Under the pieces are notes generated by a model. It searched no databases. It saw only the letters and a list, made by a program, of their open reading frames with translations, and had not been told where the DNA came from. A stretch of DNA of 64,000 nt from a virus (Duplodnaviria; Caudoviricetes): positions 1 to 64,000 of the IMG/VR virus record IMGVR_UViG_3300044991_002130; one strand, given 5' to 3'. Each line of letters begins with the position of its first letter. Within the stretch, counting starts at the first letter, position 1. The position numbers and the translations under genes are program-made. Shown piece by piece: positions 19,831 to 39,958 of the stretch.

Positions 19831-19915
19831 ATTTGTAGGTCGCAATATTCTGAATTATAATTCAGCGAAGATATTCCAATTATTGCGTTAGTGGAATTCG
19901 CCTATAACAATTTAT

Positions 19916-19991
19916 GCCGTGTGACATAGCTGGTTGTGATGACTCCTCTGCAAAAGGATGGAGATTGGTTCGATTCCAATACGCGGCTCCA
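19916..19991 (+). tRNA. tRNA-Cys(GCA)
   Basis: ctGCAaa, U73, CCA. Confidence 0.8.
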
Positions 19992-19999
19992 ATTTATAT

Positions 20000-20073
20000 G
20001 CGGGATTAGTTTAGTGGTAGAATGTGACATTGCCAATGTCGATACGGGAGTTCGATTCTCCCATCCCGCACCA
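20000..20073 (+). tRNA. tRNA-Gly(GCC)
   Basis: ttGCCaa, CCA. Confidence 0.9.
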
Positions 20074-20210
20074 CTTTGACAGGATGGAATGGGCGTCGTA
20101 TAGTTGGTAAATCAACTTGCAGTCCAACGTGAACCAACCCAGCAGCAACGAAGCGTGAGAAAAGTTGAGTTCTCATGTGAAGCTAGTAGAAGTTCTGTCA
20201 ATAATTTTAT

Positions 20211-20288
20211 GGCCATGTGACGTAACTGGATAAACGTGTTAGTTTTAGAAACTAAATTCTGTGGGTTCGAGTCCCACCTTGGCTACCA
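20211..20288 (+). tRNA. tRNA-Leu(TAG), short variable arm
   Basis: ttTAGaa, CCA. Confidence 0.8.
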
Positions 20289-20504
20289 TTTTAGGTCGAA
20301 ACAATGAGTTGCATAAATTCAATGAAACGGTTGGTTAATAACCAACAGCCACTTTTCTTGGCGCGACTTTTAATTTTGATAGTGTATGTGTTTTCGTCTC
20401 TAAAATCTTACGGCACATGGAAGACGTGTAACGGGTTCAAAGTCCGACCACTTTGCATTGAGCAGAGTGAGTAAGCCAACCATATACATTATCAAAAAAT
20501 TTAT

Positions 20505-20580
20505 GGGAGTTTGGTGAAGGCGGTCCTCACGTCGCACTGAAGATGCGAAGAAGTTGGTTCAATTCCAACAGCTCCCACCA
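20505..20580 (+). tRNA. tRNA-Phe(GAA)
   Basis: ctGAAga, CCA. Confidence 0.88.
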
Positions 20581-20586
20581 TTTTAT

Positions 20587-20660
20587 TGAGATATGTTGTA
20601 GTGGTAGCAACGGAGTCTTTGAAACTCTTAGTCTTGGTTCGATTCCAAGTATCTCAGCCA
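20587..20660 (+). tRNA. tRNA-Gln(TTG), copy 1
   Basis: ctTTGaa, U1-A72, CCA. Confidence 0.9.
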
Positions 20661-20809
20661 GTTTGAGAAACCTATACCAATAGGTGTATAAGCCGAACGG
20701 CCCGAGAGGGATGGACGTGAGCTATAGCATGGATGTGTAATCGAAAGAGTATCCACCAAGACTTGTTCTTGGCGCAAAAATCCATTGTGACAACACCTCA
20801 AACATTTAT

Positions 20810-20885
20810 CGGAGTGTGGTGACAAAGGTTGTCGATTCGTTTTGGAAACGAAATTATGCAGGTTCGAGTCCTGTCACTCCGACCA
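20810..20885 (+). tRNA. tRNA-Pro(TGG)
   Basis: ttTGGaa, C1-G72, A73, CCA. Confidence 0.85.
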
Positions 20886-20892
20886 CTTTTAT

Positions 20893-20966
20893 TGAGATAT
20901 GTTGTAGTGGTAGCAACGGAGTCTTTGAAACTCTTAGTCTTGGTTCGATTCCAAGTATCTCAGCCA
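20893..20966 (+). tRNA. tRNA-Gln(TTG), copy 2
   Basis: identical to 20587-20660. Confidence 0.9.
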
Positions 20967-20973
20967 TTTTTAT

Positions 20974-21048
20974 TGCGATATAGTGTTAAGGTAGCACAGC
21001 CCGACTGTTAATCGGGAAGTGATGGTTCAAGTCCATCTTTCGCAGCCA
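20974..21048 (+). tRNA. tRNA-Asn(GTT)
   Basis: ctGTTaa, G73, CCA. Confidence 0.88.
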
Positions 21049-21213
21049 TTTTATTATACAACAACTGCGGAGATAGTAATTCCAAAAAAGTTGTTACTGT
21101 ATGAGTAGAAGATATCGTGAATTAATTACTATGTCACGTGAAGCGAAAAATATAGGATAATATAAAGGTGAAGCCTCATCTTGAATGGGTTAAATTCCCA
21201 AAGGCATTTTTAT

Positions 21214-21291
21214 TCTCATCGGGCTGGCATGGTGTTAAGCACGTGACTGTTAATCACGATAAGCGTGGATCGTTACCACGGGTGGGAGCCA
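21214..21291 (+). tRNA. tRNA-Asn(GTT), divergent T loop
   Basis: ctGTTaa, CCA. Confidence 0.8.
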
Positions 21292-21425
21292 ATTTAATGT
21301 AGCTGAGAACGGATGCAAGCGGTATACCGAAACGCCGAAAGGTTGACCTTGGAAACAAGCGGTATGTGTCGATACAAAAGTATCATAACAGAGTGGAACT
21401 CACACTCTCATTAAAAATTTTATAT

Positions 21426-21504
21426 GGAACTAAAGCCACAGTGGACGGGCAGCGGTCTTTTAAACCGTTAATTCGTGTGGGTTCAACTCCCACTGGTTCC
21501 ACCA
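21426..21504 (+). tRNA. tRNA-Lys(TTT)
   Basis: ctTTTaa, CCA; body similar to 18691. Confidence 0.85.
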
Positions 21505-21564
21505 TTTTGTTAGCTTTTTTGTACATATGAGTTATATTTATAGAAATACCACCATTATTTACAT

Positions 21565-21990
21565 ATGAAAAAAAGCGAACTTAAAGATATTATAGCCGAA
21601 TGCGTTACCGAAGTCATTCAAGAACAAGGTTTACCAGAAGGTTGGGGACAAGACATGTTGAAAGGTTTGAAGAAGACCTTCACGGGCGATGGTCCAGACA
21701 GTGGAGCAGCACATTATGATAGAAATGCAAAAATGCACAATAAACGCGTGGATTACAGTAAAGCATCTATCGGAGATAAGTCTAAGATGCGGGCCGGAGC
21801 AAGAAAAACGGTAGAGGCTTCGAAACAAGAATTTGAAACTAAGTTAAAAGAAATGCTGCGCAGTGCATTCGTAGAAGCCGAATCAGTCGGAATGAAGCGC
21901 GAAGACGTAACAAAAGCATTTCGTTCCGCAATCACGAGTATTTTTAACAAATATAAAAGACTCGAAGAGATAGCAGAAGAACAACAATAA
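21565..21990 (+). CDS. hypothetical protein with MKKSELK..I.E N-terminus (putative internal virion protein)
   Basis: shared N-terminal motif; TATTTAT upstream. Confidence 0.7.
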   Translation: MKKSELKDIIAECVTEVIQEQGLPEGWGQDMLKGLKKTFTGDGPDSGAAHYDRNAKMHNKRVDYSKASIGDKSKMRAGARKTVEASKQEFETKLKEMLRSAFVEAESVGMKREDVTKAFRSAITSIFNKYKRLEEIAEEQQ

Positions 21991-22142
21991 TTTTTAGGTG
22001 ATGTGTGAGGTTTCACTGACTCACACTTAGTCGAGAAGCTCGATAACCTTTTGGGTGTGAGGGGCGACTATCGTGTCGCCGACATCTTTGGTCCCCACCA
22101 ATTTGTCGCAATGGGGCAATACCTCACACATATAATTTATAT

Positions 22143-22225
22143 AGCAGAGACAAGCCAAGGGACGCTGAGTGCGCTCATAACGCATCCGAAAGGTATGATG
22201 GATTCGATTTCCATCTCTGCTACCA
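22143..22225 (+). tRNA. tRNA-Met/Ile2(CAT)
   Basis: ctCATaa, extra CC-GAAA-GG arm, CCA. Confidence 0.75.
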
Positions 22226-22314
22226 ATTTCGTATTCGTGTTTCGGACCAAAAGAATATAGAGTGACATACGACTCTTTCAATTGGAAAAATCAGAGCACC
22301 CAATTTATTTTTAT

Positions 22315-22390
22315 CAGTGTGTGGTGCAAGAGGTTGGCGATTCCGCTTGGAACGGAAATTATGTAGGTTCGAGTCCTATCACACTGACCA
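22315..22390 (+). tRNA. tRNA-Pro(TGG)
   Basis: ctTGGaa, CCA. Confidence 0.82.
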
Positions 22391-22455
22391 ATTTTTAACA
22401 TACACAGTAGTCCTCTTGATTTATATCAATGTCAATAATGGCTGTGTGAAACTTT

Positions 22456-22532
22456 GGAGTGGGAGCTTATGAAGCACAAGCAATAGATTGTCAATCTATA
22501 GAAAGTCGGTGCAAATCCGATGCACTCCGCCA
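22456..22532 (+). tRNA. tRNA-Asp(GTC), divergent
   Basis: ttGTCaa, G73, CCA. Confidence 0.78.
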
Positions 22533-22659
22533 ATTTTACGATTTGAATATGGACGCATATTCATTCGTCGCGTCTGATTCAAGGTGACTGGCAGTCCTTG
22601 TGGCTGGGTTCTAGACTAAGTTGTTTCGACTACAACGGCGCGACATATTTAAATTTTAT

Positions 22660-22735
22660 GGTGTTATAGTGTAAAGGTCGCACTGGCTGATTGTCAATCA
22701 GCAAGACGGGGTTCGAGTTCCCCGTAACACCGCCA
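22660..22735 (+). tRNA. tRNA-Asp(GTC)
   Basis: ttGTCaa, G73, CCA. Confidence 0.88.
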
Positions 22736-22776
22736 CTTTGAGTCGCAATATGGAAACATATATGCCGATTTTATAT

Positions 22777-22852
22777 GCGCACGTCGTCCAACTGGATAGG
22801 ACATCAGATTACGAATCTGAGAATTAGGGTTCGAATCCCTACGAGCGCACCA
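22777..22852 (+). tRNA. tRNA-Arg(ACG)
   Basis: ttACGaa, CCA. Confidence 0.9.
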
Positions 22853-22858
22853 TTTTAT

Positions 22859-22935
22859 GGAGACGCTGGCAAAGTAGAGCCGACCTCGCTTCGAACGAGT
22901 TATAACTATAGGTTAGAGTCCTATCGCCTCCACCA
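22859..22935 (+). tRNA. tRNA-Arg(TCG)
   Basis: ctTCGaa, CCA. Confidence 0.75.
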
Positions 22936-23606
22936 ATTTTTGAGCGGCAGCGTGGAAGGACATACAGCCTTGAGAAGTTCTATTACGCACAGTATAGTGT
23001 ACATAAAGCTGTGCCTCTGAAACGAAGCGATGACTACCTAATAGATCGGGTCAGATTCAATGTCATCAATAGGTATCAATTCCTATCCGACTCAAATTAA
23101 TTTTGAATAGCAGCTCGGAGTGTAGAAAAGTTTTTCCCTTTTCGGTACGAGCATGGGGTTAAACCATCAGCGGAAAAATAAGCAACGAAAAGCCTCTAAG
23201 TTCATAACAATATGTTAAATGGGAAAATAATAACATGTTGGAATTTATGCGCAAACAGGAAACTCGCTATAGTGTAGATATATAAAGCAAAACTACATCT
23301 ATTCAAAAATTTTTGGATATGTTGCGGAACGTCTAGACAATTAACGCAAAGCTAGTCAAAGAGAATTAACATTCTTGATTGTAAGTTCAAATCTTACCTA
23401 TCCAAATTTTTTAATTTACAGAGAGTTAAGGGTACAGCCATTGGAATATCGCAGTGGGTTCATGTAGCGTAATAAGCACTCTTGACCAAACACTTTCTAA
23501 TATTTGGACAGAAGTCTAGTTGTTTGTAAAACAGGAGTCGGTGTAATCATATTGATGTTTTTCAACAGGCAACCGTGCGCGGAATAATCGGGTGCTGTTC
23601 ATTTTT

Positions 23607-23682
23607 GGCCCTATAGAATAATGGTTGAGTTCGCCTGCCTTTCAAGCAGGAGAGCCGGGATCGTGACCCGGTGGGGCTACCA
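23607..23682 (+). tRNA. tRNA-Glu(TTC)
   Basis: ctTTCaa, CCA. Confidence 0.87.
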
Positions 23683-23815
23683 ATTTGTCATCATTGAGGG
23701 CAGAAATATGAAATAGCAGTGGTGTAATGGTAGCACAGGGACAGCAAATCTTGCGATATGGTTCGATTCCATGCAGTGAAAAATAAGTCTGAGCGACCTG
23801 AAATGACAAAAATTT

Positions 23816-24083
23816 TTGTTGAGGAGGTTGGTCTAGAGGCAGCAATCCTATAATGAGTAGAGTCCGTACTCCAAGCTAGTAAAAGTGCAGCGATGAATTC
23901 TCGAATTCTGCATTTCCCATTACCAACTATAATGGTTCGCGTGGAGGCAATTCAGACGCGAACCGATAAGAACTACGGAATTGACCTTAGCTCGGTGCCG
24001 AAAATGTAAGCGCAAATATAGTTGTTATATATTTGGCCGCGAAACGGTGTTAGCTCTTTTGGCGTAATAGCACACTCTTCAAA
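23816..24083 (+). ncRNA. ncRNA containing a 23S rRNA H43-H44 (L11-binding) mimic with a ~200-nt insert
   Basis: AGGAGGTTGGTCTAGAGGCAGCAATCCTATAATGAGT ... GCGTAATAGCACACT, closed by GAG/CTC and TTG/CAA pairs. Confidence 0.75.
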
Positions 24084-24094
24084 AATATTTAAAT

Positions 24095-24173
24095 GGCGAT
24101 ATCGTCTATGTTTGGAAAGGACAGGATATTCTCAATATTCAAAGGTCGGTTCGACTCCCGACTATCGCCACCA
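24095..24173 (+). tRNA. tRNA-Glu(CTC)
   Basis: ttCTCaa, CCA. Confidence 0.85.
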
Positions 24174-24175
24174 TT

Positions 24176-25534
24176 TTATGTTTTCCATTTACGAATTAAG
24201 TTTTTCAACTTGATTCTGTGCTCGCGGATTTTTTGCTTACTGCGCAATCTGATATAATTAGCAACTTCCTCCGCGCCACCAAAAGTTAACATTTCAACTA
24301 TATCGTTAATATCTTTTGGAATAAATTTTTCTTGGGTCTGTGGGTCGGCGAACATGTATGTTTGATTTGAAGAATTTCGATATGCTTGATATTTTTTCAT
24401 CGCATTCCCTAACACACTTTCTAGATTGAAATCGGATAATCTCACCAAGTTTTCGTAACTAGAATCGTCCAATACACCGCGAACAATATTTGACATTGGT
24501 TTGCCGTAAGTTTTAATATTCACAACGTGTGTTATAGCGTTGGTGATTTGGTCGAGATAATCTCCGTCGTAACTTTTCAAGAACTTGGTCAAATCTTTAG
24601 AGAGGAATACACCATTGTCTCTTCCATGATGAAAGATGCACCACCACGCTAAGTTTTTTCCCAGCGCATCGTAATCTTCGGTTCCTAGATATTCTTCTAG
24701 GTCGTCCTCTATACGACCGTCGTCTAGGATGTTATAATGTTCTGCTATTAGCGTAGACAGTTTAGGAACAAACTCGTCGCCATGATCTTTTACCCACTCT
24801 TCGTTTTTCTTTTCTTCCACTTCTTGCTGTCTGTCTGAAATATTGCTTTCATCGTCATCAAGGTATTCCGTTAATTTTTCCATTGCTTCTTCCGGCAATA
24901 TTTCTGATAAATATTCCCCCGGTCTAGACATGGTATGGTCCTGAGAATTATACAATGTCCAATCACGACTGTTCGCCCCGGACGGAGAGAGCAACGCCAA
25001 TCGAGCCATTGGTTTTTCAGATTCTCGGTCATGTATAAGAATTACGGTGTTTTCAGAGTAGTAATCCTGCCAATAATCTTCGCTGCTTGAAATACACCAG
25101 TTGGTTTTTCCGGCTGCAAAATTTCCAACTGCATCTTGTGAGCGCGGACCGACAATTAAAAATCTGTCATCTTCGTAAATCAGTTCGGTGTCTGCGGCTA
25201 ATTTTTCTCTGTTGCTAAGTTTCTTCGCGGCTTCGTCGGTGGCTCGGACAAACTCTTCATAAGTTTTGTACTTGTTGATGTCAATGCTTGATAGCTTGTT
25301 GAAGTGCACCTTAATTCTCTGTAACAAATCATTAGCGAACACTTTGTTTTCAATTTTGTCGGATACGGTGACGATCTTTCCAAGCCAGTCGAGATACTTC
25401 TTGTTGGCGGTAAAGTCGCCATCTATAAGTAAGTTCTGCATCCATAATGGGAGGTTTACGTATTTCTCTTGAAAGTCAGAAACTCGACTTTCCAGCAATA
25501 AATATGGCAATAAAGATGATAATTTGATGTGCAT
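24176..25534 (-). CDS. hypothetical protein (putative virion protein)
   Basis: 452 aa; IKLSSLL..LLE start, TNWCIS motif; TATTTAT upstream. Confidence 0.75.
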   Translation of the reverse strand: MHIKLSSLLPYLLLESRVSDFQEKYVNLPLWMQNLLIDGDFTANKKYLDWLGKIVTVSDKIENKVFANDLLQRIKVHFNKLSSIDINKYKTYEEFVRATDEAAKKLSNREKLAADTELIYEDDRFLIVGPRSQDAVGNFAAGKTNWCISSSEDYWQDYYSENTVILIHDRESEKPMARLALLSPSGANSRDWTLYNSQDHTMSRPGEYLSEILPEEAMEKLTEYLDDDESNISDRQQEVEEKKNEEWVKDHGDEFVPKLSTLIAEHYNILDDGRIEDDLEEYLGTEDYDALGKNLAWWCIFHHGRDNGVFLSKDLTKFLKSYDGDYLDQITNAITHVVNIKTYGKPMSNIVRGVLDDSSYENLVRLSDFNLESVLGNAMKKYQAYRNSSNQTYMFADPQTQEKFIPKDINDIVEMLTFGGAEEVANYIRLRSKQKIREHRIKLKNLIRKWKT

Positions 25535-25673: not shown

Positions 25674-25677
25674 ATTT

Positions 25678-25752
25678 GAAGAAGTAGCTCAGAGAAAGAG
25701 CGCCGGTGTTTCAACGTCTGTGAGGTCGGTGGTTCAAGTCCACCCTTCTTCG
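25678..25752 (+). ncRNA. tRNA-like gene with malformed anticodon arm
   Basis: GAAGAAG/CTTCTTC acceptor, normal D and T arms, ambiguous tttcaa loop, no CCA. Confidence 0.55.
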
Positions 25753-25761
25753 ATATTTTAT

Positions 25762-25840: not shown

Positions 25841-27403
25841 TTAACTTGGATCATATCCAAACTCATGAAGACTATCGCCTGTAGTAAATAAATGCATAGC
25901 CGAAACAGTCTTTGTTAAGATTTTATAATCTCCCATAAGAGTATTTCTGCCGTGACTAATAGCGTATCTTTTATTTATTGTCACCCAATCACCGGGATTG
26001 ATTTTTAAACCTTTCAATTTCTTCGATTTGAGCGCGTCCATCTCAGCAAACAATTTTTCAAGCAAAGCGTCTTTGTTATATTTTAACTCGGGATATAAAT
26101 CGGAATATTTACTGCCTACTGGTAAAAATCCAAATTTCATGATGTACCCGGCAACGGTTGATATATCTTTAATTTTATTATCCGTGTCTTTGTTTAAGTT
26201 TGGTACTGCCCTGTATATTCTAACTTGCTTGTTGGGGTTTCCTCTTGCACTTTGTATTATAGATACGGTCTCAGCATCACTGTATTCAGTTGATCGATCC
26301 CCATAATATTGTTCGGCCTTCGATGAATAAACATCGTCTGGATAAATTTTTGTTAAATCGTGCAATGGTGCTCCGCCATCTTTATCTGGCGCACGGTGTT
26401 GACCTTTATAATCTTCTTGTTCAGACAATTTTAATTGGTCACGCTGGTCGTTTGATATAGCGTTTTTACTTTTTAGTTTATCAAAGAACAACTTCACTCT
26501 TGGGTCGGATGATAATAAACTATCGGATGCTGCCTCTTCCATCCAGTGTTCTAATAAAGTTGTCAAATCCTCGCGGTTGACGGCGTTGTTAATCAAAATA
26601 TTTTTGTCTTTTATATCACCCTTAAATCTCATTGGAACATTTGATCCCACTTTTTTATATCCAATTTTTTCTAATTGATTGGATATTTTTTCCGGAACTG
26701 CAAAAATAGCCGGTGTGGATGAGTGTAGCAAATCCAATAGCATATCTATACCAGTTTTACCAGTCTCGGGTGCAAAATGCGAAACGGCAAATGTATCACC
26801 GATGAATTGACCAACGAGATAATCTTTGGAGTTATATGGATTATAAATAGTCCCATGTCCGCTTTGTAAATGTGAAATTAAATCGGTAGGATTTATACCT
26901 GCACGAACCGCGTATTTTTCGTAGTTATCTTGAATAGTATGTGCTTCTTCTTCACCTGTAACATCTCTAAAATTTGAAGATAGCCGAGTATCGGATTGCG
27001 GCAACTTAGTTACTGTATATGCCTCAGATACCTTACTTGTATTTATTTTTTCCGATTTTATTATTTTTATTTGCCGTGGAGAAAATACAAAACAGTCAAA
27101 TTGACCATCAGCGTCTTTGAGGATTACTCCATCAAATCCATTACCTTTAATCTGACCAAGACCAAGCTTGTCGTATTCATCCCACCCAGCAGGATTATTA
27201 ATGGTGACTTCGGCAGTAATTAGGTAACCTTTACCTTGTGCACCCGCTTCGTTTGACAATATTTTGTTTTTATCAGACGTAAACCATATAATACCTTGAG
27301 TAGTTTTTTTCAAGTCAAACTTTTTAAATTTTGAACCTGTTCCATGATACACAGTCAATGGTTTCGACTGAATCTCGTTAAGTAAATCTTTTAATTTAAT
27401 CAT
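25841..27403 (-). CDS. multidomain protein with ADP-ribosyltransferase-like (ART-PolyVal-like) domains
   Basis: MIKLKDLLNE; VYHGT..F..F..GIIWFT..GFDGVI; C-terminal IYRAVP..INPGDWVT..YA..HG. Confidence 0.6.
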   Translation of the reverse strand: MIKLKDLLNEIQSKPLTVYHGTGSKFKKFDLKKTTQGIIWFTSDKNKILSNEAGAQGKGYLITAEVTINNPAGWDEYDKLGLGQIKGNGFDGVILKDADGQFDCFVFSPRQIKIIKSEKINTSKVSEAYTVTKLPQSDTRLSSNFRDVTGEEEAHTIQDNYEKYAVRAGINPTDLISHLQSGHGTIYNPYNSKDYLVGQFIGDTFAVSHFAPETGKTGIDMLLDLLHSSTPAIFAVPEKISNQLEKIGYKKVGSNVPMRFKGDIKDKNILINNAVNREDLTTLLEHWMEEAASDSLLSSDPRVKLFFDKLKSKNAISNDQRDQLKLSEQEDYKGQHRAPDKDGGAPLHDLTKIYPDDVYSSKAEQYYGDRSTEYSDAETVSIIQSARGNPNKQVRIYRAVPNLNKDTDNKIKDISTVAGYIMKFGFLPVGSKYSDLYPELKYNKDALLEKLFAEMDALKSKKLKGLKINPGDWVTINKRYAISHGRNTLMGDYKILTKTVSAMHLFTTGDSLHEFGYDPS

Positions 27404-28526: not shown

Positions 28527-28578
28527 TTTACATTAAATATAATAAGTAAATTTAAAATTGAAGTATATATTTATATTT

Positions 28579-29127: not shown

Positions 29128-29264
29128 ATTTCAATATAAAAAACCAGTATAGCCCAAAGATAATTCAGCGGTCTGGGGTGATGCATCACTTGTCTGTTTG
29201 GGATATTGAAACTAATTTAATGTGATGAGCCCTAGTTTTTGTATTTGGTATATATTTATATTAC

Positions 29265-30256: not shown

Positions 30257-30384
30257 ATTTGTAAGTTTTATAAGATGTAGCCAATGCTTCCAAGCGAGGA
30301 TCATGTGCTGTAAGTTCTTACCTGTCGCAATGGTGCAAAATAGAAACATCGAGCATTAGAGTTGGTAGCTTACAAAAATTTTAT

Positions 30385-31037: not shown

Positions 31038-31080
31038 ATTCCGCTATTTTTACTTATTATATATATATTTATAACAATAT

Positions 31081-31965
31081 ATGAGTATATTACAATCTAC
31101 GTTTGATAAGCATAAGAAGTTGATGTTGGAGAGTGTTGTACAAGATAGATTGCGTGATGAGGCGGCGCTTGAACAAAAAAAACAGCAACTGCTTGCGAGT
31201 GGATTAAGAGTCGTTCCAATGCAAGGTGGGGAAGACAAAAAATACTTTGCATATACATCGGGGAGATACATTGTGTTGATTGATATGGGAAATATAAAAC
31301 TTCCATTTTATTGTTCTTCCGGAGAAGGAGGAAAAGCAAATGTTCCTTCTGGAAAATGGTATCCGATTTTTGGAATAAGCAAAGCGGGTTGGCTCAACAA
31401 GGGCACAGAAGAACAAATTAACAATTATTATGGAAGCAGTGCTGCAAAATCTGTGGCCAAGAAGTTAGACGAGGTATTGGGAGATATGCGAGAAATGTTT
31501 TCGATGAAACATTTCGTGGGTGTAGACAAGGTATTGCCTATTATAAATCAAGATTTGAATCCACCCGACCAACGCCCCACCCCAGAAAGATCAAAAGAAT
31601 ATATGGAAATATATAGAGCGAATGTTAGAAACGTTTTGCAGAAAATAGGAGGGAACGCGGGACCAGTTCCAATAAAAAATAAGTTAACATTAACACACAA
31701 CGGTAAAAATGTTGTGGAAGCAAATATTTCAGCAAACATTGGCCGAGCAATCGTCCAAAAACACGGCGACGACGCCAAATATTTTAGTAGTGAACAATTT
31801 CAAATTCAAAAACAAAAAGATGATACGTGGAAATTGATTCATAACAAAGCTGCCACGAATATAACAACCATTGATGGTAAAGAAGTAACCGAGCCAACAA
31901 CACTTGTCAAAGGAATGAAGATTGCGCTAGGAAAAACTGGCAAATTTCCAATGGAAGTTGGCTAA
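31081..31965 (+). CDS. protein with C-terminal FHA-like domain
   Basis: IGR..S..Q..I....W.L.....TN.T.IDG..L..G..I.LG pattern. Confidence 0.65.
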   Translation: MSILQSTFDKHKKLMLESVVQDRLRDEAALEQKKQQLLASGLRVVPMQGGEDKKYFAYTSGRYIVLIDMGNIKLPFYCSSGEGGKANVPSGKWYPIFGISKAGWLNKGTEEQINNYYGSSAAKSVAKKLDEVLGDMREMFSMKHFVGVDKVLPIINQDLNPPDQRPTPERSKEYMEIYRANVRNVLQKIGGNAGPVPIKNKLTLTHNGKNVVEANISANIGRAIVQKHGDDAKYFSSEQFQIQKQKDDTWKLIHNKAATNITTIDGKEVTEPTTLVKGMKIALGKTGKFPMEVG

Positions 31966-32184
31966 TATAATTTTCTATAGTGACAAAAAGGGCGGCAGAC
32001 TCTGAATCTGTTGTTTGAAGCGTTGGGGTTGCTCCCAACTCAGTAAACGGCACTGAGGGTGGTTTAACCTAACCACGAAAGATGCTAAAGTGAGATAGCT
32101 GTGGGACAGCTTGACTATAGAAAAATTTTTGATATAAATAGTAGTGGTTCATCGCTTTTGTCTTGATTCAATATATTTATTGAT

Positions 32185-32943
32185 ATGGAACAAAAAATTT
32201 GTGAACTTGGGTGTGGTAAAATTGCTATTCATCAACTGAAAAGTGGGAAGTGGATTTGTGATACATCCGCAAACAAATGTGAAGTTATGCGAAAGAAAAA
32301 TTCTGACGCTACCCTTGGAATAGAAAAGCCTTGGATGAGAGGAGAAAACCACCCCAGACCGATGTTAGGAAAAAAATCTTGGAACTCAGGATTAACAAAG
32401 GAGACGAGTCCAATAGTTATGGCTCAGTCAAATAAAATGAAGGGGACAGTTTCAAAGTTTGGTGGCCGAGCATCAACCGCCGAAAAAGAAAAATTAAGAA
32501 AAGAGAATATTTCTAAATCTATGAAAGGTGTTGGTGGGGGATTTAGAATGAAAAGTGGTAGAGGTAAAAAAGGTTGGTATAAAGGATATTTTTGTAGTAG
32601 TTCGTGGGAATTGGCGTGGGTCATTTACTCATTAGAGCATGGAGTAAAATTTGAGAGAAACAAAATTGGATTTCCATATGAATTTAATGGAAAACGGAAA
32701 AAATATTATCCCGATTTTATTGTTGATAAAAATTATGTGGAGATAAAGGGATACGATTCTCCACAGTGGGAAGAGAAGAAAAAGCAGTTCAACAATAATT
32801 TGATTGTTCTTGGGAAAAATGAGATAAAACCATACATAGAATACACAGAAACAAAGTATGGAAAAGATTTTGTTAGGTTATATGAAGATGGAAAGGTGGC
32901 AGAGCGGTCTATTGCGGAAATCTTGAAAATTTCTAATCCTTAA
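32185..32943 (+). CDS. putative homing endonuclease (NUMOD3-like plus PD-(D/E)xK)
   Basis: GENHP..GK.SWN.G; SSWE; YYPDF..YVEIKG; 3' end overlaps tRNA-Ser. Confidence 0.8.
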   Translation: MEQKICELGCGKIAIHQLKSGKWICDTSANKCEVMRKKNSDATLGIEKPWMRGENHPRPMLGKKSWNSGLTKETSPIVMAQSNKMKGTVSKFGGRASTAEKEKLRKENISKSMKGVGGGFRMKSGRGKKGWYKGYFCSSSWELAWVIYSLEHGVKFERNKIGFPYEFNGKRKKYYPDFIVDKNYVEIKGYDSPQWEEKKKQFNNNLIVLGKNEIKPYIEYTETKYGKDFVRLYEDGKVAERSIAEILKISNP

Positions 32944-32979
32944 ACGGGTTCGTGGGTTCGATTCCCACCCTTTCCTCCA
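32890..32979 (+). tRNA. tRNA-Ser(TGA)
   Basis: ctTGAaa, long variable arm, CCA. Confidence 0.92.
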
Positions 32980-33045
32980 TTTTATGGCGTCCACTTGAGG
33001 ATGAACCATAGAGTGCGGGTAGATGAATCGCACACGCCAATTTTC

Positions 33046-33121
33046 GCCGCCGAAGTTCATATGGGTGAACGTCTGTTTCGTAAATAGAATGTAGCTGGTT
33101 CGATTCCAGCCGGTGGCTCCA
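33046..33121 (+). tRNA. tRNA-Thr(CGT)
   Basis: ttCGTaa, CCA. Confidence 0.87.
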
Positions 33122-33164
33122 TTTTACATAATATAGTTCATTGTATATTATATTTATTGGTAGT

Positions 33165-33836
33165 ATGAAAACCAATATTATAATAAACGGTCAGACATTC
33201 AACAAGTCTGATACATTCAATCCAAACACAGAAAATTTACAAACAGATGGATTGTCAGTTCTGTGTTTCAGTCAAAATGATAATTGTAAAGTAAACGACT
33301 GTATCATAGATGGCGAAGATGCTCGTTGGGGAGGCAAAGCCTCATTGACATTCGATCTTGAATATACCAAATGTACTTTTAAAAATGGTACTGCGCGTGC
33401 CTTTGACATGGTTCGTGGCGGCAATGTTACATTTACAGATTGTATATTTGAGAACAATGTCAGAAACAAAGTTAAATCTCAATATAGTTTAACAGAGTTG
33501 TGTGATCTTGGAATCAAAGGTGGTGTGCATGATGTAACATTTCATAGTTGCGTGTTTAATGACATTTTGATTGGCGATTATAGTATTTACGATCAACGAG
33601 ATAGACCAAAAGCTCGTCGCTTTACTTTTATCAATTGTAAGAATATAGATGGCGGTCCAATCATTATTCGTGGCAGATATGTAGATAAAGATTCTATCAG
33701 TTTGATTGGTACAAATGCAAAAATGTGGGTTTGGCCAACAATTTTTACTAAACTATATTGGATGTATAATCGCAAGTTTGGCGATACTCGCAAGCCAGAT
33801 GGCTGGAATGTATATGATCCCAGAGAACTGATCTGA
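33165..33836 (+). CDS. beta-helix-repeat-like protein
   Basis: recurring VTFxxCxF units. Confidence 0.55.
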   Translation: MKTNIIINGQTFNKSDTFNPNTENLQTDGLSVLCFSQNDNCKVNDCIIDGEDARWGGKASLTFDLEYTKCTFKNGTARAFDMVRGGNVTFTDCIFENNVRNKVKSQYSLTELCDLGIKGGVHDVTFHSCVFNDILIGDYSIYDQRDRPKARRFTFINCKNIDGGPIIIRGRYVDKDSISLIGTNAKMWVWPTIFTKLYWMYNRKFGDTRKPDGWNVYDPRELI

Positions 33837-34268
33837 TCAAGCGTCTTTGGAAAGTTCTCCGCGAGCAATCAAAATCTTTTTATTGGTTTGGTGAGCTTCT
33901 TGAACCAACTCTTTATTTTCACCAAGATAAGCCACGGCATAGTTGTTTTCAATTAGCCACTTATTTATATTTGTTCCATCGTCTAATATAAACTCTCCAA
34001 GAATACGACCAAACTTGTCGTCGTTGTTATCATCCTTGGTGGTGTTTATTTTTTGATAGCTACCAATCGGTAGTTTTTCTGTTAATTTTTTCTTGGAAAG
34101 CATACCACGAGTTTTTTCCTCTTTGTTGTTTGTTCTTGACTCTGGCGTATCTACGCCGGATAGCCTCACACGTTGATTGGATAATATTATATTAAATCCA
34201 AGGTCCAAGTCTATCTCAACGGTGTCGCCGTCGACGATTTTGTTTATTTTGCATTTATATTGATACAT
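33837..34268 (-). CDS. thermonuclease (SNase-like)
   Basis: VDGDT, RVRLSGVDTPE, DKFGRILG. Confidence 0.9.
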   Translation of the reverse strand: MYQYKCKINKIVDGDTVEIDLDLGFNIILSNQRVRLSGVDTPESRTNNKEEKTRGMLSKKKLTEKLPIGSYQKINTTKDDNNDDKFGRILGEFILDDGTNINKWLIENNYAVAYLGENKELVQEAHQTNKKILIARGELSKDA

Positions 34269-34292
34269 AGAGTATAATATATATCAATTCGC

Positions 34293-34366
34293 TGGGAAAT
34301 GATGTAGTGGTAGCATATTTGTCTCTGAAACAAATCGCGTTGGTTCGATTCCAACTCTCCCATCCA
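34293..34366 (+). tRNA. tRNA-Gln(CTG)
   Basis: ctCTGaa, CCA. Confidence 0.87.
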
Positions 34367-34482
34367 ATTATTATATCTTATAAAAGCTTATTATAAAAAT
34401 TTTTGTCTTGTAAAAGTCATATATATCTGTTCTAATTGAACATATATCGTCCTTGAAAGAGGATGTAATTTGAAAAATAACT

Positions 34483-36417
34483 ATGAATAATAATAAAAAT
34501 ACAAGAAATAACTCGGTCTGGAACAAGCTTATTGTTTTGTTCTGCCTGTTTGCTACTGTTGCGTTTGGACTGCCGTCCATCGAAACAAGTAATTTACAAG
34601 CTACACCGGGCGTAACGCTATCACAAGCCGGTACATCGCTAGTGGTCACATCACCAAATAAATCCGTTCTGACGTGGCAGAATTTTGGTAGTGGCACCGA
34701 TACCATCGCCAGCGGAGATAGTATAAATTATACGTTACCATCCTCCAATTCTTCGGTTTTAAATATAGTAACTGGCGGAAACAATACTACTATCAATGGA
34801 AGCATTTCTTCGAATGGAAATGTATACATTCTGAATCCGAACGGAATAATAATTGGAAGTAATGCTCGTATTGACACCAATGCAATTTATGCAAGTACTG
34901 CTGATGGTACATCAATTGGCTCTAACTATTTTCTAGCAAATGGAAAATTGCCAAGTCAAGATGGATTGGTTTTGGGCGGAAGCAGCATAACTGTTAAACC
35001 CGGCGCAACAATCACCGCCGTATCTAACAATATTTATTTGGCGTCCAATGGATTGGATTTGCAAGCGGGTTCAATCAATGGAAACTTGACAGTAAATGCA
35101 ACTGGGACTGTGGGTCTAAGCACACTCGGAACAACCTTTATCGCGGGAGATTTGACCGTAAATAATTCGTATGGAACAACAACACTTGCCACGCCCGGAA
35201 ATACCTTGGCCGTGAGTGGAGTCGCAACCGTCAATACCGTTGCTGGAACTGTGATTAATACGGCAGGAAGTTCTTTGAATGCCCGCTCCGTCGTTATAAA
35301 TGCTGGCATTGGCGAAATTTCGGTGGCAAAAGTGGTATCTTCTACTGTAACTGCCACCGGTAAAAATGTTTCCATTACATATGGACAAAATGCGCCGGTC
35401 ACATTCGTCGGTTCTGCGGCAAATAACATTTCCGTAAATGCTCCGGGAGCACTGACACTCTCTGATGTATCTAATACCGGAACAGGCACAGCAACTTTTG
35501 TTTCGGGAGATAGATTATCTCTTGGAAAGATTCATCTCAATGGAACCGGCGGCGCATCCTTTACTGGAACTTCCGTGGTCGATACAATTGGTAATGCATT
35601 TGTATATGGCGGAACCTCTTTCACTGCAAACTCCGGTGGAGATATTTCTATCACAAAGACCGGAAATAGCTTTGGACCAGTGAGTGTTACCACAACCGGT
35701 AATGCCACCATCAACGAATCCGCGACACTTAATTTGAATGTAATCAATGTTGGAAATGTTCTCGCGTTGTCTAGCCTCGGAGAAAACATTTTTCAAACTT
35801 CGACTACTGGCACAATCACAAATGCGTCGCCCGTTGTTTCTGCTGTTGGCAGCATTCAATTGCTTGCTCCAAGCAATACATTTAACACAATTGCTGTAAA
35901 TGGAACTGATGTATCGTTGGTCACCGCCAATGCATTAACACTTGATAATATTTCGGCCAACGGTCAATTGTCGATTACAAGCGGCGGAGCAATTTCCCAA
36001 AAAGTTGGAGCGACTGTTAAATCTTTCTCGGATACAACTTTCAATACGACGAATAACAACATTACCTTGGCTAACACCGGCAATAACTTCGGTGGATTGA
36101 CTTTGAATGCTGGCAATGGAAACATTTCCGTTGTTGAAAGTTCTACTATAAGACTTCTTGGTGTCGGTGGAAGTACCGTGGTATTGAAGAGTGGTGGAGA
36201 TATCATCAATTCCGGGGCAGGTGCAATTACCACTCGGACATTGAATCTTGAAGCTGGTGTGGGGATTGTCCTGACAAATGCGGCCACAATTTCTACTTCG
36301 TTGCTGTTCAAGGCCGTTGGTACTGTCGATTTGAGTGCTCTAAGTTTGGCAACAAATCTAAATAGCGTAGTTCCCGTGAATAATGGGGCTGGTACTTATA
36401 CGCCCCCAACTCCTTAA
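34483..36417 (+). CDS. filamentous-haemagglutinin-like secreted beta-helix protein (TPS domain)
   Basis: signal peptide; LTWQNF, VLNIVTG, NGNVYILNPNGI; long G/N/T-rich repeats. Confidence 0.85.
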   Translation: MNNNKNTRNNSVWNKLIVLFCLFATVAFGLPSIETSNLQATPGVTLSQAGTSLVVTSPNKSVLTWQNFGSGTDTIASGDSINYTLPSSNSSVLNIVTGGNNTTINGSISSNGNVYILNPNGIIIGSNARIDTNAIYASTADGTSIGSNYFLANGKLPSQDGLVLGGSSITVKPGATITAVSNNIYLASNGLDLQAGSINGNLTVNATGTVGLSTLGTTFIAGDLTVNNSYGTTTLATPGNTLAVSGVATVNTVAGTVINTAGSSLNARSVVINAGIGEISVAKVVSSTVTATGKNVSITYGQNAPVTFVGSAANNISVNAPGALTLSDVSNTGTGTATFVSGDRLSLGKIHLNGTGGASFTGTSVVDTIGNAFVYGGTSFTANSGGDISITKTGNSFGPVSVTTTGNATINESATLNLNVINVGNVLALSSLGENIFQTSTTGTITNASPVVSAVGSIQLLAPSNTFNTIAVNGTDVSLVTANALTLDNISANGQLSITSGGAISQKVGATVKSFSDTTFNTTNNNITLANTGNNFGGLTLNAGNGNISVVESSTIRLLGVGGSTVVLKSGGDIINSGAGAITTRTLNLEAGVGIVLTNAATISTSLLFKAVGTVDLSALSLATNLNSVVPVNNGAGTYTPPTP

Positions 36418-36440
36418 TAATTAACAAGTTGTAAGACTTC

Positions 36441-36469
36441 AAGCCCAACCATAAAAAGGTTGGGCTTTT
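36441..36469 (+). terminator. intrinsic terminator
   Basis: AAGCCCAACC-ataaaaa-GGTTGGGCTT plus T-run. Confidence 0.8.
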
Positions 36470-36506
36470 CATTTATAATTAATTTTGATATATATTTATT
36501 AAACAT

Positions 36507-36773
36507 ATGACAAAATCAGAACTTAAAGCATTAATCAAAGAAGTAATACAAGAAACTCAGTTTGCAGAAGAAGTGGAATTGAATCCAGAAAAGCAAGAAC
36601 ATATGACAACGACCCAGTTGAATGGATTGAATCAAAAATCCGAAAAGATGCTAGAAATAATGCAATCTGAGAATATTAAACTTGAGCCTTGGATGATTGA
36701 TTTAATCAGCCAAGCATATCATAATATTGATGCGGTCGCGAACAAACTCATGTTCGGTCAGAAGAAAGATTGA
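36507..36773 (+). CDS. hypothetical protein with MTKSELKALIKEVIQE N-terminus
   Basis: shared N-terminal motif; LEPW..DLIS.A segment. Confidence 0.7.
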   Translation: MTKSELKALIKEVIQETQFAEEVELNPEKQEHMTTTQLNGLNQKSEKMLEIMQSENIKLEPWMIDLISQAYHNIDAVANKLMFGQKKD

Positions 36774-36938
36774 GAAAGTTATTGACTTTGGATAAAATTC
36801 TGGCACTCTCTTACTCAAGAAAAGGGTGGAGTGAAAACGACTCCACGGAGGTAACGGGTAGGATTTCCTCCGAAGGACACGAACCGCAATATGTGCCTTC
36901 CTCTAGCTTATTTTGTTGATTGACAGTATTTAGATTTT

Positions 36939-37013
36939 CCTCTCGTAGCTTAATGGTAGAGCTGGCTCTTTATAGGGGCATGGTTGTGGGTTCGAGTCCT
37001 ACCGGGAGGACCA
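36939..37013 (+). tRNA. tRNA-Ile(TAT), second copy
   Basis: ttTATag, CCA. Confidence 0.8.
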
Positions 37014-37432
37014 TTTGTTCGTTCAGTTCAATGTACCGTGAAAAGCAATGGCCACAATGAGTCAACCGTGCTGAGTAATTTAGCGAGACGCAGGGTAAGG
37101 GAAACACTCAAGATAACTTACTATCAGGTATTACGACAACCCCTAAGTTAAAAGGTGGAATGAACAAAAACTTTGAGAATAAAAAAGGCACTTGGCCCGA
37201 TGATAATTGTGACGCTTGCAACCTCGCTAGAGGGAAATTGGTAGGCAAGCTGCGTCAGTCCGAAAGGATTGGTCGTCTAACTACGAGGTAATGCTCATCT
37301 TAGATGTAGATGTACAAGCACATCGTATAATAGCAGATTTCAGCACAGCCAAGAGGTAGAATGTCTGGCGGTTGATAGACACCTACTGAAAGATCATCAT
37401 CCTAGGTTAGCAACTAGGTATTCTCGAAAACT

Positions 37433-37801
37433 TTCGAAGTAAGCGACCTTGCGCTGGTGACTATAGCTGAGTTAAGATGCCATCCATAATACGGTAATCA
37501 ACCCGTTGAGACGAATGGATGTAAAATTCTCAAAAATTAAAATTCTATAATTACTAGAGGAAGTTCGCCCCTGCATAACACGGCGAGGCAGAGCAAACGC
37601 AGAGCAGAACACGTTGTTGGGTCTCGGGTCCAACCGAGATAGTTGACAATTGAGGACGCTCGCTCTTAGCGGCTCGTTATCGACCTCACGCAAGCAGCAA
37701 CCTCAAAACGTCAAAGTGTGGGTGTTACACGTTGTAAAGGCAGGTAGAGGGCTTAGACAAATGCAAGGATAAAACAGAAGGGCGGCTACGGCTGCTTCGA
37801 A
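37433..37801 (+). ncRNA. rnpB: RNase P RNA (catalytic subunit), phage-encoded
   Basis: CR-I GAGGAAGTTCGCCC, CR-V AACAGAAGGGCGGCTA (P4 GCCC/GGGC), AGACAAATG, P2 CCTTGC/GCAAGG, P1 TTCGAAG/CTTCGAA. Confidence 0.85.
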
Positions 37802-37816
37802 AAACTTTAGTAAAAT

Positions 37817-37902
37817 GCAAGGGTAGGTAAGTGGCTAAAACAGGAAGTTTCATAAGCTTTCGCCGTAAGGCTTCGCGGGTTCGAATCCCGCCTCTTGCAC
37901 CA
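37817..37902 (+). tRNA. tRNA-Met/Ile2(CAT) with long variable arm
   Basis: ttCATaa; GCC-gtaa-GGC arm; A73, CCA. Confidence 0.78.
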
Positions 37903-37911
37903 ACTTTAGAT

Positions 37912-37986
37912 GCCGACAAAACATAAATGGTGATGTGCGAACTTGGTAAGTTCGAAAAATGGGTCCGATTCCCATTGTTGGCTCCA
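37912..37986 (+). tRNA. tRNA-Thr(GGT)
   Basis: ttGGTaa, CCA. Confidence 0.85.
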
Positions 37987-37992
37987 ACTTAT

Positions 37993-38069
37993 GCCGATGA
38001 AAGACACTTGATTCTGTATGTCAGGTATTCGTCGTAACGTACCCAGTTCGATTCTGGGCATCGGCTCCA
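37993..38069 (+). ncRNA. D-armless tRNA-like RNA with Thr-type acceptor
   Basis: GCCGATG/CATCGGC-T-CCA, perfect T arm, CTTGAT/GTCAGG arm. Confidence 0.6.
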
Positions 38070-38249
38070 ATTTATGAAAATTGAAACAATCGAAGATATA
38101 GCAAAAGTTATAGTAAACCTTCCATCCGATTTAAGAGAGTACTTGATAAGTAATGTTACTCCGTCTACTTTTGTGTCATGTCTTCTTTTATTGGGGGCAG
38201 GAGGAAATATAAAAGATTTCGCCTCCGCACTCAAAGAACATATGGTTAT

Positions 38250-38681
38250 ATGAAGAAGATACTAATAATGGGACTACCCGGCGCAGGAAAAACAACACTG
38301 GCCAAAGAATTGGCCAAGATGTTGAATGCAGTTCATTTCAACGCCGATGAAATTCGCCGAGAGGTGAACAAAGACCTGAAATTCGAGTTAGTTGACCGTA
38401 TAGAACACGCTAGGCGCATGGGAGTGCTATGTGACATTGTCGTAAGAAGCGGACATTATGCAATTGCAGATTTTGTTTGTCCAACCAGAGAAACGCGAAA
38501 GGCATTCGGCGCGGACAAATCATTTATAATATGCATGGATAGAATTGAAGCTGGTAGGTACGAGGATACAAATAAATTGTTTGAATATCCAGCAATGTGC
38601 AATGTTCGAGTTGGAAATACAGGAACAGCCGAAGAATGGGTGAATAAAATTTATCATAAATTAGCAAGTGCAGGTCAGTGA
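38250..38681 (+). CDS. adenylyl-sulfate kinase-like P-loop kinase
   Basis: GLPGAGKTT, NADEIR, DR.E.ARR, DFVCP. Confidence 0.8.
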   Translation: MKKILIMGLPGAGKTTLAKELAKMLNAVHFNADEIRREVNKDLKFELVDRIEHARRMGVLCDIVVRSGHYAIADFVCPTRETRKAFGADKSFIICMDRIEAGRYEDTNKLFEYPAMCNVRVGNTGTAEEWVNKIYHKLASAGQ

Positions 38682-38734
38682 TATATATAGTATTTTTATA
38701 AGAACCAGTCTGTTCTGTTATATTTATTATAACT

Positions 38735-39394
38735 ATGAGCAAACACACCACCATCAGTATAGAAGATTTGGAAAAAACTATTTTGTTTTTAGAAACTCCT
38801 CGCCCAATATTGAAACGGGTGATAAAATTGTGTGAAGTCAGAGAATATCCAACCGGCGTATTCATCATAACGGAAAATGAATGCAGTCAGTTTATGTTTA
38901 TACTAATTTCAGGAACGGTTGACTTGATCAAGGGAAATAAATCAAAGAAGATAGCAACTCTTGGCGCTGGAAGTATAATAGGAGAAGGAACTTTGATTTC
39001 TGGTGCGCCTAGAAGTGCAACAATAGTAACTGCTTCACATGTAAAAGTTGCAATAATCAATAAAGATTCATTTGATAAAATGTTGACTATGCATCCTTCA
39101 ATTCCTATTGCATTGATGAAACTACATTCAAGTAGATGCAAGTCTGTTGTGGCAAATGTTAATATATTCAAGTCTTATGGGTTTATGGTTATTGCAGCGT
39201 TGTTTGGTTTGATGACATTGAAAAATTCACATAGTGTTATAGATATAGAGTCAATCAGTCCTGTGTTGAAGCAGTTGGCTGGATTGATACCAGACCAATA
39301 TATGTCAGTTTGTGGACCAGCCGCTTTGCTTGCATTCGTAAAATCTCAGAAGATGGATATTAATAGTATACAAGCAAAATTAGAGAAAATTTGA
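38735..39394 (+). CDS. cyclic nucleotide-binding domain membrane protein
   Basis: G..IGE..L....PRSATIVT; C-terminal hydrophobic segments. Confidence 0.85.
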   Translation: MSKHTTISIEDLEKTILFLETPRPILKRVIKLCEVREYPTGVFIITENECSQFMFILISGTVDLIKGNKSKKIATLGAGSIIGEGTLISGAPRSATIVTASHVKVAIINKDSFDKMLTMHPSIPIALMKLHSSRCKSVVANVNIFKSYGFMVIAALFGLMTLKNSHSVIDIESISPVLKQLAGLIPDQYMSVCGPAALLAFVKSQKMDINSIQAKLEKI

Positions 39395-39453
39395 TGAAAT
39401 TGTAGTTGACGAACAACAGAATGTGTGTATAGTCATTGTTGTTCTTTTGATAC

Positions 39454-39544
39454 GGCTGTGTGGCGGAATTGGCTATACGCACTTCGCTTAGAACGAAGCA
39501 CCTATAAAAAAGGTATATGGGTTCGACTCCCTTCGCAGCCACCA
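39454..39544 (+). tRNA. tRNA-Leu(TAG)
   Basis: ctTAGaa, long variable arm, CCA. Confidence 0.88.
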
Positions 39545-39958
39545 AATAAAAATAGTAATCGCGATGATCAAAGATGAATTTTGCTACAAATATACTTGAC
39601 AGTATCAAATAATAATCTATAGTCATTCTTGTTCTTTTAAATACTTTTTTCTGGTCGTAAATACTTTGGGTCTCGTAAACCCATTTACTGGTTGGTATAC
39701 AATGACAAACACGTAGTAAATGTTGATTGAAATTCCTCTGCTTCCGAAGCGCGGGCCTGATATTATAGTTAGGTTAGAGCACTTGAGACATTTACTTGAT
39801 TGTATATCGAAGGGGAGCATAGCTGCTGTGCATACCGAGAGATTACCAACTCAACAAGCAGTCAGAAAAAAAATAAGTGCTGACATTGGGGATGACTCAC
39901 CTGCTGATGAACCAATGGCGCGGAGACGCAGGTCACTACCGCCAGCACTTCACTTTAC

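Follow-up and report, generated by a model that had tools for sequence, protein, structure and literature searches.

In bacteriophage T4, RNase P and RNase E excise RNAC and RNAD. Elsewhere, flanking tRNAs set the ends of a neighbouring RNA through RNase P- and RNase Z-type cuts, as in mitochondrial transcripts and for the MALAT1 mascRNA (tRNA punctuation), and some phages encode YrlA, a Y RNA-like RNA. RNAC and RNAD (species 1 and 2 RNAs) are described as small RNAs of unknown role that are transcribed from T4's tRNA region (PMC3014915), and their detection by Northern blot is recorded (PMC9697503). GOLLD and ROOL are introduced as phage or prophage non-coding RNAs of unknown function that often lie near tRNA islands (PMC12286853), and the knockout of an archaeal ATP-dependent RNA ligase is stated to lower the circularisation of C/D-box small RNAs (PMC9014305). 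Here, we analysed the tRNA array on 64,000 nt of viral DNA (Caudoviricetes; IMG/VR record IMGVR_UViG_3300044991_002130, positions 1 to 64,000; hereafter, the window), the gaps of which hold a series of non-coding, mostly stem-closed blocks.

The window covers the first 64 kb of an IMG/VR contig of 74.4 kb, for which CheckV gives a completeness of approximately 34%. One relative is a complete genome of 297 kb; therefore, we assigned the contig to an uncultivated jumbo phage. ARAGORN predicted 44 tRNAs at 18.7-40.4 kb, every one on the + strand, and Rfam added two (22456-22529 and 42981-43057), giving an array total of 46. We propose that the blocks embedded in this array are genes for structured non-coding RNAs, and we put the probability of this reading at about 0.62. 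It is based on the pairing of block ends, conservation, mobility, covariation and contigs from RNA libraries. The analysis shows non-coding blocks with conservation, modularity and covariation; for their transcription and their presence as discrete RNAs, the support is indirect.

RNAC and RNAD are the closest known case. Like them, the blocks are non-tRNA elements set among the clustered tRNA genes of a phage, on the same strand as these; however, the present locus differs in number, diversity and modularity, with approximately thirty distinct blocks here and approximately eighty block families in the clade compared with two RNAs in T4. A distant blastn search with 19600-24200 against cultured phages (INPHARED, 50,697 records) returned tRNA matches only and none in T4, so that no sequence relationship of the blocks to the T4 RNAs was found. 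GOLLD and ROOL are single families and GOLLD often exceeds 800 nt, whereas the blocks are 50-370 nt long and all different; neither model matched the window or the arrays of four relatives, even at lax E-values. In contrast to described cases of tRNA punctuation, the units released here would themselves be non-coding RNAs and would belong to a bacterial virus, and some would have their own promoter; the sole match to the mascRNA model (19.5 bits) sits on a real tRNA. Block c20373 (coordinates of all blocks are given in Table 1) resembles YrlA in its long closing stem and T-loop-like internal module. However, the YrlA model matched no block in the window or the four relatives, its sole window match (18.8 bits) lying over two tRNAs, and a Ro60/TROVE gene was absent from the contig of the window and from the complete 297-kb relative, with control genomes scoring. 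Our literature search found no description of such a phage RNA library.

The non-tRNA, non-open reading frame (ORF) sequence of the array, obtained by taking out tRNAs and plausible ORFs, amounts to 5,274 nt. Its gaps were cut at the linkers by an automatic trim into 31 blocks, or 34 if sub-blocks are counted apart. The initial annotation had described many of these gaps as blocks whose ends pair and whose U-rich linkers are those of the tRNAs, and both features were found. By our own count, TTT followed CCA within 6 nt in 41 of the 46 tRNAs, TTTAT preceded most of them, and an A-run followed by a T-run stood at the 3' end of approximately 29 of the 31 blocks, as for tRNAs. In the minimum free energy (MFE) fold of 18 of the 31 blocks, 4 or more of the 10 bases at the 5' end were paired with bases among the last 14. 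The mean energy of the 12-nt end duplex was -5.08 kcal/mol for cognate ends compared with -2.03 kcal/mol for non-cognate ends; the cognate value was reached in 0 of 10,000 permutations, and 13 of the 31 blocks fell in the lowest decile. That is, terminal pairing was better than in the controls. Hand-adjusted block bounds agreed (0 of 5,000 permutations), and the end pairing was repeated in relatives, where 147 of 217 array blocks are unlike those of the window and form 54 clusters (0 and 1 of 10,000 permutations). The + strand fold was stabler than the - strand fold in 24 of the 31 blocks (p = 3e-4).

Each block is single-copy and lies on the tRNA strand. Block-versus-block comparison detected no paralogy, in agreement with the earlier description of mutually distinct cassettes, and antisense matches of blocks to the rest of the window did not go beyond chance or self-palindromes. 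GNRA hairpins, which had been noted in several cassettes, account for 7 of the 30 predicted tetraloops. Among the cassettes originally singled out, those at 20376-20495, 22001-22131, 23101-23308, 37014-37168, 37172-37428 and 39645-39871 were closed, the ends of 29129-29211 were not closed by a stem, and the stem at 20076 overlaps a promoter-like site.

We gathered approximately 25 related contigs by tRNA 3'-end pattern, ligase protein and cassette pattern, and the longer ones were extended. Homologues covering at least 70% were present for 18 of the 34 blocks and partial ones for five more. Blocks had a pooled median identity of 95.7%, compared with 84.1% in tRNAs and 75.5% in coding sequences (CDS), values that are biased to detectable homologues. 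Blocks c20373, c21049 and c22936 reached 97-99% identity in phages with a ligase gene of approximately 74% identity. For c20373, 42 loci held 15 variants with a median identity of 98.5%, and 9 of the 171 alignment columns of c21049 were variable. A host origin of c20373 and c22936 was considered and rejected because neither had an exact counterpart in 185,579 prokaryote genomes, the search for c20373 being for an exact 22-mer.

The blocks are modules whose order differs among relatives. In one relative, they follow each other, in window numbering, as 23516-23686, 24095-24177, 22922-23103, 23099-23315, 23808-24083 and 22393-22455. Array non-tRNA sequence amounts to 2-5 kb per relative, of which 77-100% is common to another contig but a smaller part, roughly one quarter to two fifths, to the window.

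Covariation, the homologue-based check that had been called for, was clear in the alignments of five blocks, c23099, c39641, c36774, c23413 and c20373. For c23099, 99.8% of cells were paired across 53 predicted pairs, both sides had changed in 6-7 pairs, and G-U pairs were kept. Its covariation score was 0.188 compared with 0.109 +/- 0.010 in shuffles (0 of 500 reached 0.188) and 0.02-0.065 for slid partners. Both sides had changed in 13 of the 71 predicted pairs of c39641 (5 sequences). Clean compensatory pairs were seen in c36774 at alignment columns 59-61/71-73, 79/99 and 109/124; c23413 had 5 compensatory pairs among 3 sequences and c20373 had 2. Three compensatory pairs (alignment columns 254-314) were also counted in the small cassette c39880, whose two GATGA motifs bear a possible resemblance to kink-turn or box C sequences. 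Coding was excluded for c23099 and c39641, in which indels of 1, 2 and 4 nt occur.

Rfam 15 covariance models, applied with gathering scores and at lax E-values, identified no cassette family in the window or the arrays of the four relatives apart from a weak RNase P-like match. The tRNA model (RF00005) matched no block at E <= 5 except 39965-40041 (23.1 bits). Models of self-cleaving ribozymes (hammerhead, twister, HDV-like, pistol and hatchet) had no match in the window. In one relative, an HDV-like match (L066:1622-1696, + strand; 32.1 bits, gathering score 44, E 0.045) lies upstream of the array, outside the cassettes. The set is heterogeneous, with one RNase P RNA-like element, three or four elements that are tRNA-like by eye and the rest outside described families.

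The exception, 37435-37805, matched the archaeal RNase P model RF00373 at 25.9 bits (gathering score 84; E 9.5e-6 in a 401-nt search), and the model aligned over its full length. The GAGGAAGUUCGCCCC and ACAGAAGGGCGGCUAC motifs match, with complementary CGCCC/GGGCG, and the universal motifs GAGGAA...CCCC and ACAGAAGGG align. In the same format as the cassettes, the closing stem corresponds to the P1 helix, and the linkers are AAAACTTT. A two-motif pattern did not recover the element from IMG/VR, nor was it found in the four relatives' arrays (E <= 0.05). Were a phage to encode an RNase P RNA, this would be of interest in itself. The argument that functional RNAs are packaged in the same format had partial support: the putative RNase P-like RNA, at a score below gathering, has P1 as its closing stem, and the supposed rRNA mimic had no rRNA-like Rfam match in the region.

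A sigma-70-type motif, TTGAC(A/G)-N16-17-TATAGT, has six + strand sites in the window (20076, 39406, 39596, 40556, 48800 and 56361), and a related form occurs once on the - strand; TGGTAAAT follows two of the TATAGT-type sites. A 10/12 version lies inside c22936. Block c20074, whose stem overlaps the first site, is probably a promoter plus leader, judging by this motif. Upstream of c39641, TTGACA-16-TATAGT was found in the window and one relative, and a tRNA CCA-ATTT stands directly before it in three relatives. Because the upstream context differs between genomes, c39641 may be served by its own promoter or by tRNA read-through.

We then considered contigs assembled from four public runs with metatranscriptome labels, requiring at least 88% likeness; parts of the window outside their cover (e.g., 24670-25336 and 32007-36675) carry no weight. 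The contigs cover c22936, c23099, c23413 and c23818, and c22936 is wholly covered by record 22 of run X5 (depth 30.9) and record 10 of run X3. In X5, contigs over c23818 were the deepest (53-158), compared with 30.9 for c22936 and 3.4 for the contig on one CDS, although genes cannot be ranked by such depths. Two X5 contigs, 195 and 241 nt long, have the size of one cassette. The proposal that the cassettes form a polycistronic array released by tRNA punctuation fared unevenly: the common linkers, the position of c39641 after CCA-ATTT and the cassette-length contigs support release indirectly, and the array is not purely polycistronic, given the separate promoter of c39641.

Several observations weigh against the reading of the blocks as RNA genes. 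In the collected relatives, 16 of the 34 blocks had no homologue at the 70% coverage threshold and 13 had none at all, and the status of these 13 therefore rests on shape alone. No compensatory change was seen in the hyperconserved c21049, c22936, c22391 and c23818, and an RNAalifold structure of c23818 was rejected as unsupported, since it had no compensatory pair and 10 of its pairs were broken in some sequences. Blocks had a mean MFE z-score of -1.30, compared with -0.85 in 60 coding segments and -1.86 in 30 tRNAs; the single-sequence z-score was dropped as a discriminator because blocks and coding segments did not differ significantly (p = 0.10). Promoter-like sites lie in c20074 and possibly in c22936, and in the window scan such sites were overall no commoner than in shuffles, so that of the promoter and terminator scans we relied on the recurrent TATAGT-type sites alone. 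The contigs come from environmental RNA libraries and show neither ends, strand nor level, and DNA is a possible source. X3 contigs also bridge tRNA-Arg to c22936 and c22936 to c23099, indicating that unprocessed or DNA forms exist.

Other explanations must be compared with the same data. If the blocks were passive structured spacers that insulate tRNAs from misfolding or give nucleases entry, and are degraded after tRNA release, they could share linkers with the tRNAs, be stem-closed, fold with energies like those of coding DNA and match no known RNA family, as observed. We nevertheless regard this as unlikely, since unpaired segments are near-invariant in c20373, c21049 and c22936 where proteins fall to approximately 75% identity, modules move without regard to particular tRNAs, c39641 is preceded by a promoter of its own and, as a weak measure, the X5 depths of c23818 and c22936 (about 31 for the latter) exceed that of the contig on a CDS. 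A DNA-level cause of conservation, such as promoters, recombination or homing sites, or inverted repeats like those of miniature inverted-repeat transposable elements, is less likely still. The near-identical-or-absent pattern does fit recent lateral spread, terminal inverted repeats exist, and the promoter motif occurs inside c20074 and in its 10/12 form inside c22936; however, the blocks are single-copy without paralogues, compensatory changes with retained G-U pairs are specific to one strand, the + strand fold is the stabler one, and RNA-library contigs lie over blocks.

That the blocks are decayed tRNA genes or functionless tRNA-like remnants of array turnover would account for the acceptor- or T-arm-like parts in 37993-38068, 39951-40050, 23314-23403 and part of 23687-23807, as well as for the tRNA-model score of 39965-40041. 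We consider it very improbable for the set, because no other block scored at E <= 5 on that model, the blocks are better conserved than real tRNAs, and the helices that covary in c23099 and c39641 do not resemble a cloverleaf. The idea that some blocks encode micro-peptides has the least to recommend it. Read by eye, c21049 contains an ATG ORF of 19 codons (21103-21162, + strand), in which 2 of 4 substitutions among relatives are synonymous by our own reading; no Shine-Dalgarno-like sequence precedes it, c20373 and c22936 have by eye no ORF of at least 15 codons, and c23099 and c39641 carry frame-breaking indels.

Under the reading as structured RNA genes, most blocks would be co-transcribed with the tRNAs, and a sigma-70-type promoter of their own would serve some. 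Host tRNA-separating enzymes may cut at the A-run/U-run linkers, with RNase P acting at the 5' ends of tRNAs and an RNase E-type enzyme cutting in AAU/UUU. The closing stem would keep both ends together and shield them from exonucleases, and we propose that each block therefore persists as a discrete stable RNA. As a guess, these RNAs may act in trans on host translation and on RNA-processing or RNA-cleaving defence, alongside the phage tRNAs, tmRNA and RNA ligases.

The X5 contigs also raise the question of whether stem-closed cassettes, once cut at the AAU/UUU linkers, are circularised by a phage RNA ligase, which we advance as a tentative and rather doubtful proposal. The 241-nt contig runs from 23170 to 23306, continues through TTAAT and returns to 23101 (junction 23306>23101), and a second junction, 24084>23812, passes through TAACC; both inserts are downstream linkers of relatives. 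At k = 31, a value that we infer together with the arithmetic, the lengths agree with closed cycles: 241 = 206+5+30 and, for the c22936 contig (22937-23101), 195 = 165+30. In favour of circles are the RNA ligase gene next to the array and the T4 Rnl1-like gene 11 kb downstream. However, the junctions are seen in one run only and in contigs rather than reads, another run shows linear contexts, and rare template-switch chimeric reads could close an assembly graph likewise. On the side of circles again, no tandem cassette copies or junctions were found in the collected relatives or, with gap-tolerant patterns, in the 2.9 million viral contigs of IMG/VR. As in the archaeal circular small RNAs, a stem places the ends side by side, and here a ligase gene adjoins the array and head-to-tail junctions occur in one run; the phage ligase differs in being closest to a Naegleria RNA ligase rather than to the archaeal enzyme, and circularity here is a candidate from contigs. 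If excised cassettes were joined end to end, the tRNA array would be a factory of exonuclease-resistant circular non-coding RNAs.

Table 1. Features of the tRNA array and of its flanks, in window coordinates. Identities refer to the collected relatives; z, MFE z-score.
Feature	Position	Strand	Observations
RNA ligase gene	16571-17617	+	Pfam PHA02142 OB-fold and RNA_ligase; ends ~1 kb 5' of first tRNA
TATATTTAT-like motif sites	18810-18830, 28560-28580, 29250-29265, 31060-31080, 32170-32185, 36490-36507		
Cassette c19245	19249-19312	+	Ends pair; homologues for first 38 nt only, in 4 relatives
Cassette c19831 (initially 19833-19907)	19835-19908	+	6 terminal pairs; one related lineage at 98%
Block c20074	20078-20202	+	Closing stem overlaps TTGACA-17-TATAGT at 20076-20104 (11/12 match); homologue not found in relatives
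Cassette c20289	20293-20365	+	Homologues 87% identical; ends not stem-closed
Cassette c20373	20378-20493	+	17-bp closing stem; z -4.47; 0/200 shuffles as stable
Cassette c20661	20665-20803	+	Non-coding; two GNRA loops predicted; homologue not found in relatives
Cassette c21049 (hyperconserved)	21055-21205	+	19 loci at 97.6-99.4%
Cassette c21292	21296-21413	+	Two GAAA loops predicted; homologue not found in relatives
Cassette c21991	21996-22133	+	11-bp closing stem; z -4.34; end duplex -13.1 kcal/mol; homologue not found in relatives
Cassette c22226	22230-22301	+	3 loci at 98.8% identity
Cassette c22391	22397-22448	+	8-bp closing stem; 9 variants in 20 loci, 92-98%; position differs in relatives
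Cassette c22533	22540-22646	+	z -2.21; one relative at 99% identity
Small GAAA hairpin c22736	22740-22767	+	One lineage at 97% identity
Cassette c22936 (hyperconserved)	22942-23093	+	16 loci at 96-99%; 0 compensatory pairs
Cassette c23099	23105-23304	+	Best-supported fold of the set; 12 sequences, 9 distinct
tRNA-like cassette c23314	23314-23403	+	Acceptor-like stem and T-arm-like hairpin by reading; one lineage at 98%; no match to Rfam tRNA model
Cassette c23413	23419-23600	+	Halves 1-93 and 104-194 present separately, in different lineages
Cassette c23683	23687-23807	+	tRNA-like T-arm by reading; one lineage at 84%; end duplex -8.5 kcal/mol
Cassette c23818	23818-24082	+	Closing stem; 14 loci at 91-96%
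Conserved piece of a 444-nt non-coding gap	29847-29944	+	Two relatives at 93-95%
Cassette c30257	30261-30373	+	7 terminal pairs; z +0.85; homologue not found in relatives
Cassette c31966	31975-32120	+	CTATAG closing stem; one relative at 94%
Small cassette c32980	32986-33038	+	GGCGT/ACGCC end pairing, -7.3 kcal/mol; homologue not found in relatives
Cassette c36774	36774-36933	+	Three covarying hairpins; 6 sequences, 81-89% identity
Cassette c37014	37017-37165	+	8-bp closing stem; partial homologue in one relative
Cassette c37174	37174-37426	+	z -2.25; 7 terminal pairs; one relative at 96%
RNase P RNA-like cassette	37435-37805	+	Weak match to RF00373
tRNA-like element	37993-38068	+	7-bp acceptor stem, T-arm and CCA by reading; z -3.28; tRNA call absent from both ARAGORN and Rfam
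Sigma-70-like promoter of c39641	39596-39623	+	TTGACA-16-TATAGT, 11/12 match
Cassette c39641	39651-39865	+	Stem-closed; 5 sequences at 77-85% identity
Cassette c39880, 71 nt	39880-39950	+	AAGTGCTG/CAGCACTT closing stem; two GATGA motifs in an invariant core
Degenerate type-II tRNA-like element	39951-40050	+	Rfam tRNA 23.1 bits at 39965-40041, gathering score 29
Second RNA ligase, distant T4 Rnl1 relative	50870-51985		Protein match; 11 kb downstream of array

Among the tRNAs, the one at 25677-25753 (+ strand) has the anticodon TCA and would read UGA (labelled SeC by ARAGORN), and an odd tRNA-like ARAGORN call with a two-base anticodon lies at 19660-19729 (+ strand). A phage-encoded tmRNA was identified at 48398-48789 (+ strand; 77.8 bits in Rfam), with the TTGACA-16-TATAGT promoter-like site at 48800 after it. 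The protein of the array-adjoining ligase gene matched the Naegleria gruberi RNA ligase over its full length (E 2.3e-62). Used as a query, it recovered 23 related loci, 18 of which had at least 6 tRNAs downstream. The array protein 31081-31965 recovered no relative as a locus query, and the two loci obtained with 21565-21990 were without tRNAs or similarity and were dropped.

Three small array ORFs on the + strand (21565-21990, approximately 28580-29040 and 36507-36773) have a common N-terminus, M-K/T-K-S-E-L-K-x-L/I-I-x-E-V-I-Q-E, by which they appear to be a paralogous family interleaved with the RNAs. An AT-rich TATATTTAT-like motif, read from the sequence, stands directly 5' of many array ORF start codons and may be a phage-specific promoter. 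Genes in or beside the array encode an ART-PolyVal ADP-ribosyltransferase domain protein (25841-27403, - strand), an ADP-ribosylglycohydrolase (13031-13939, + strand), an APS-kinase-like P-loop kinase (38178-38681, + strand) and a cyclic-nucleotide-binding protein (38735-39394, + strand).

T4 has two RNAs of this kind, whose role has been unknown for decades; one phage here would have approximately thirty, and its relatives approximately eighty block families. Because covariation supports several folds that belong to no described family, the clade would be a dense source of new structured RNA classes. Conservation often exceeds that of tRNAs, indicating strong constraint, as is expected of RNAs engaging conserved host machinery or defence nucleases. 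The linker-and-stem format may be suited to expressing numerous stable RNAs from a single transcript. Should circularisation prove real, the locus would hold a ligase-made circular RNA library in a bacterial virus; to our knowledge it would be the first, and our literature search found no such report. Since tRNAs, a tmRNA, an RNase P-like RNA and two ligases adjoin, the locus looks like an RNA toolkit for the takeover or protection of translation.

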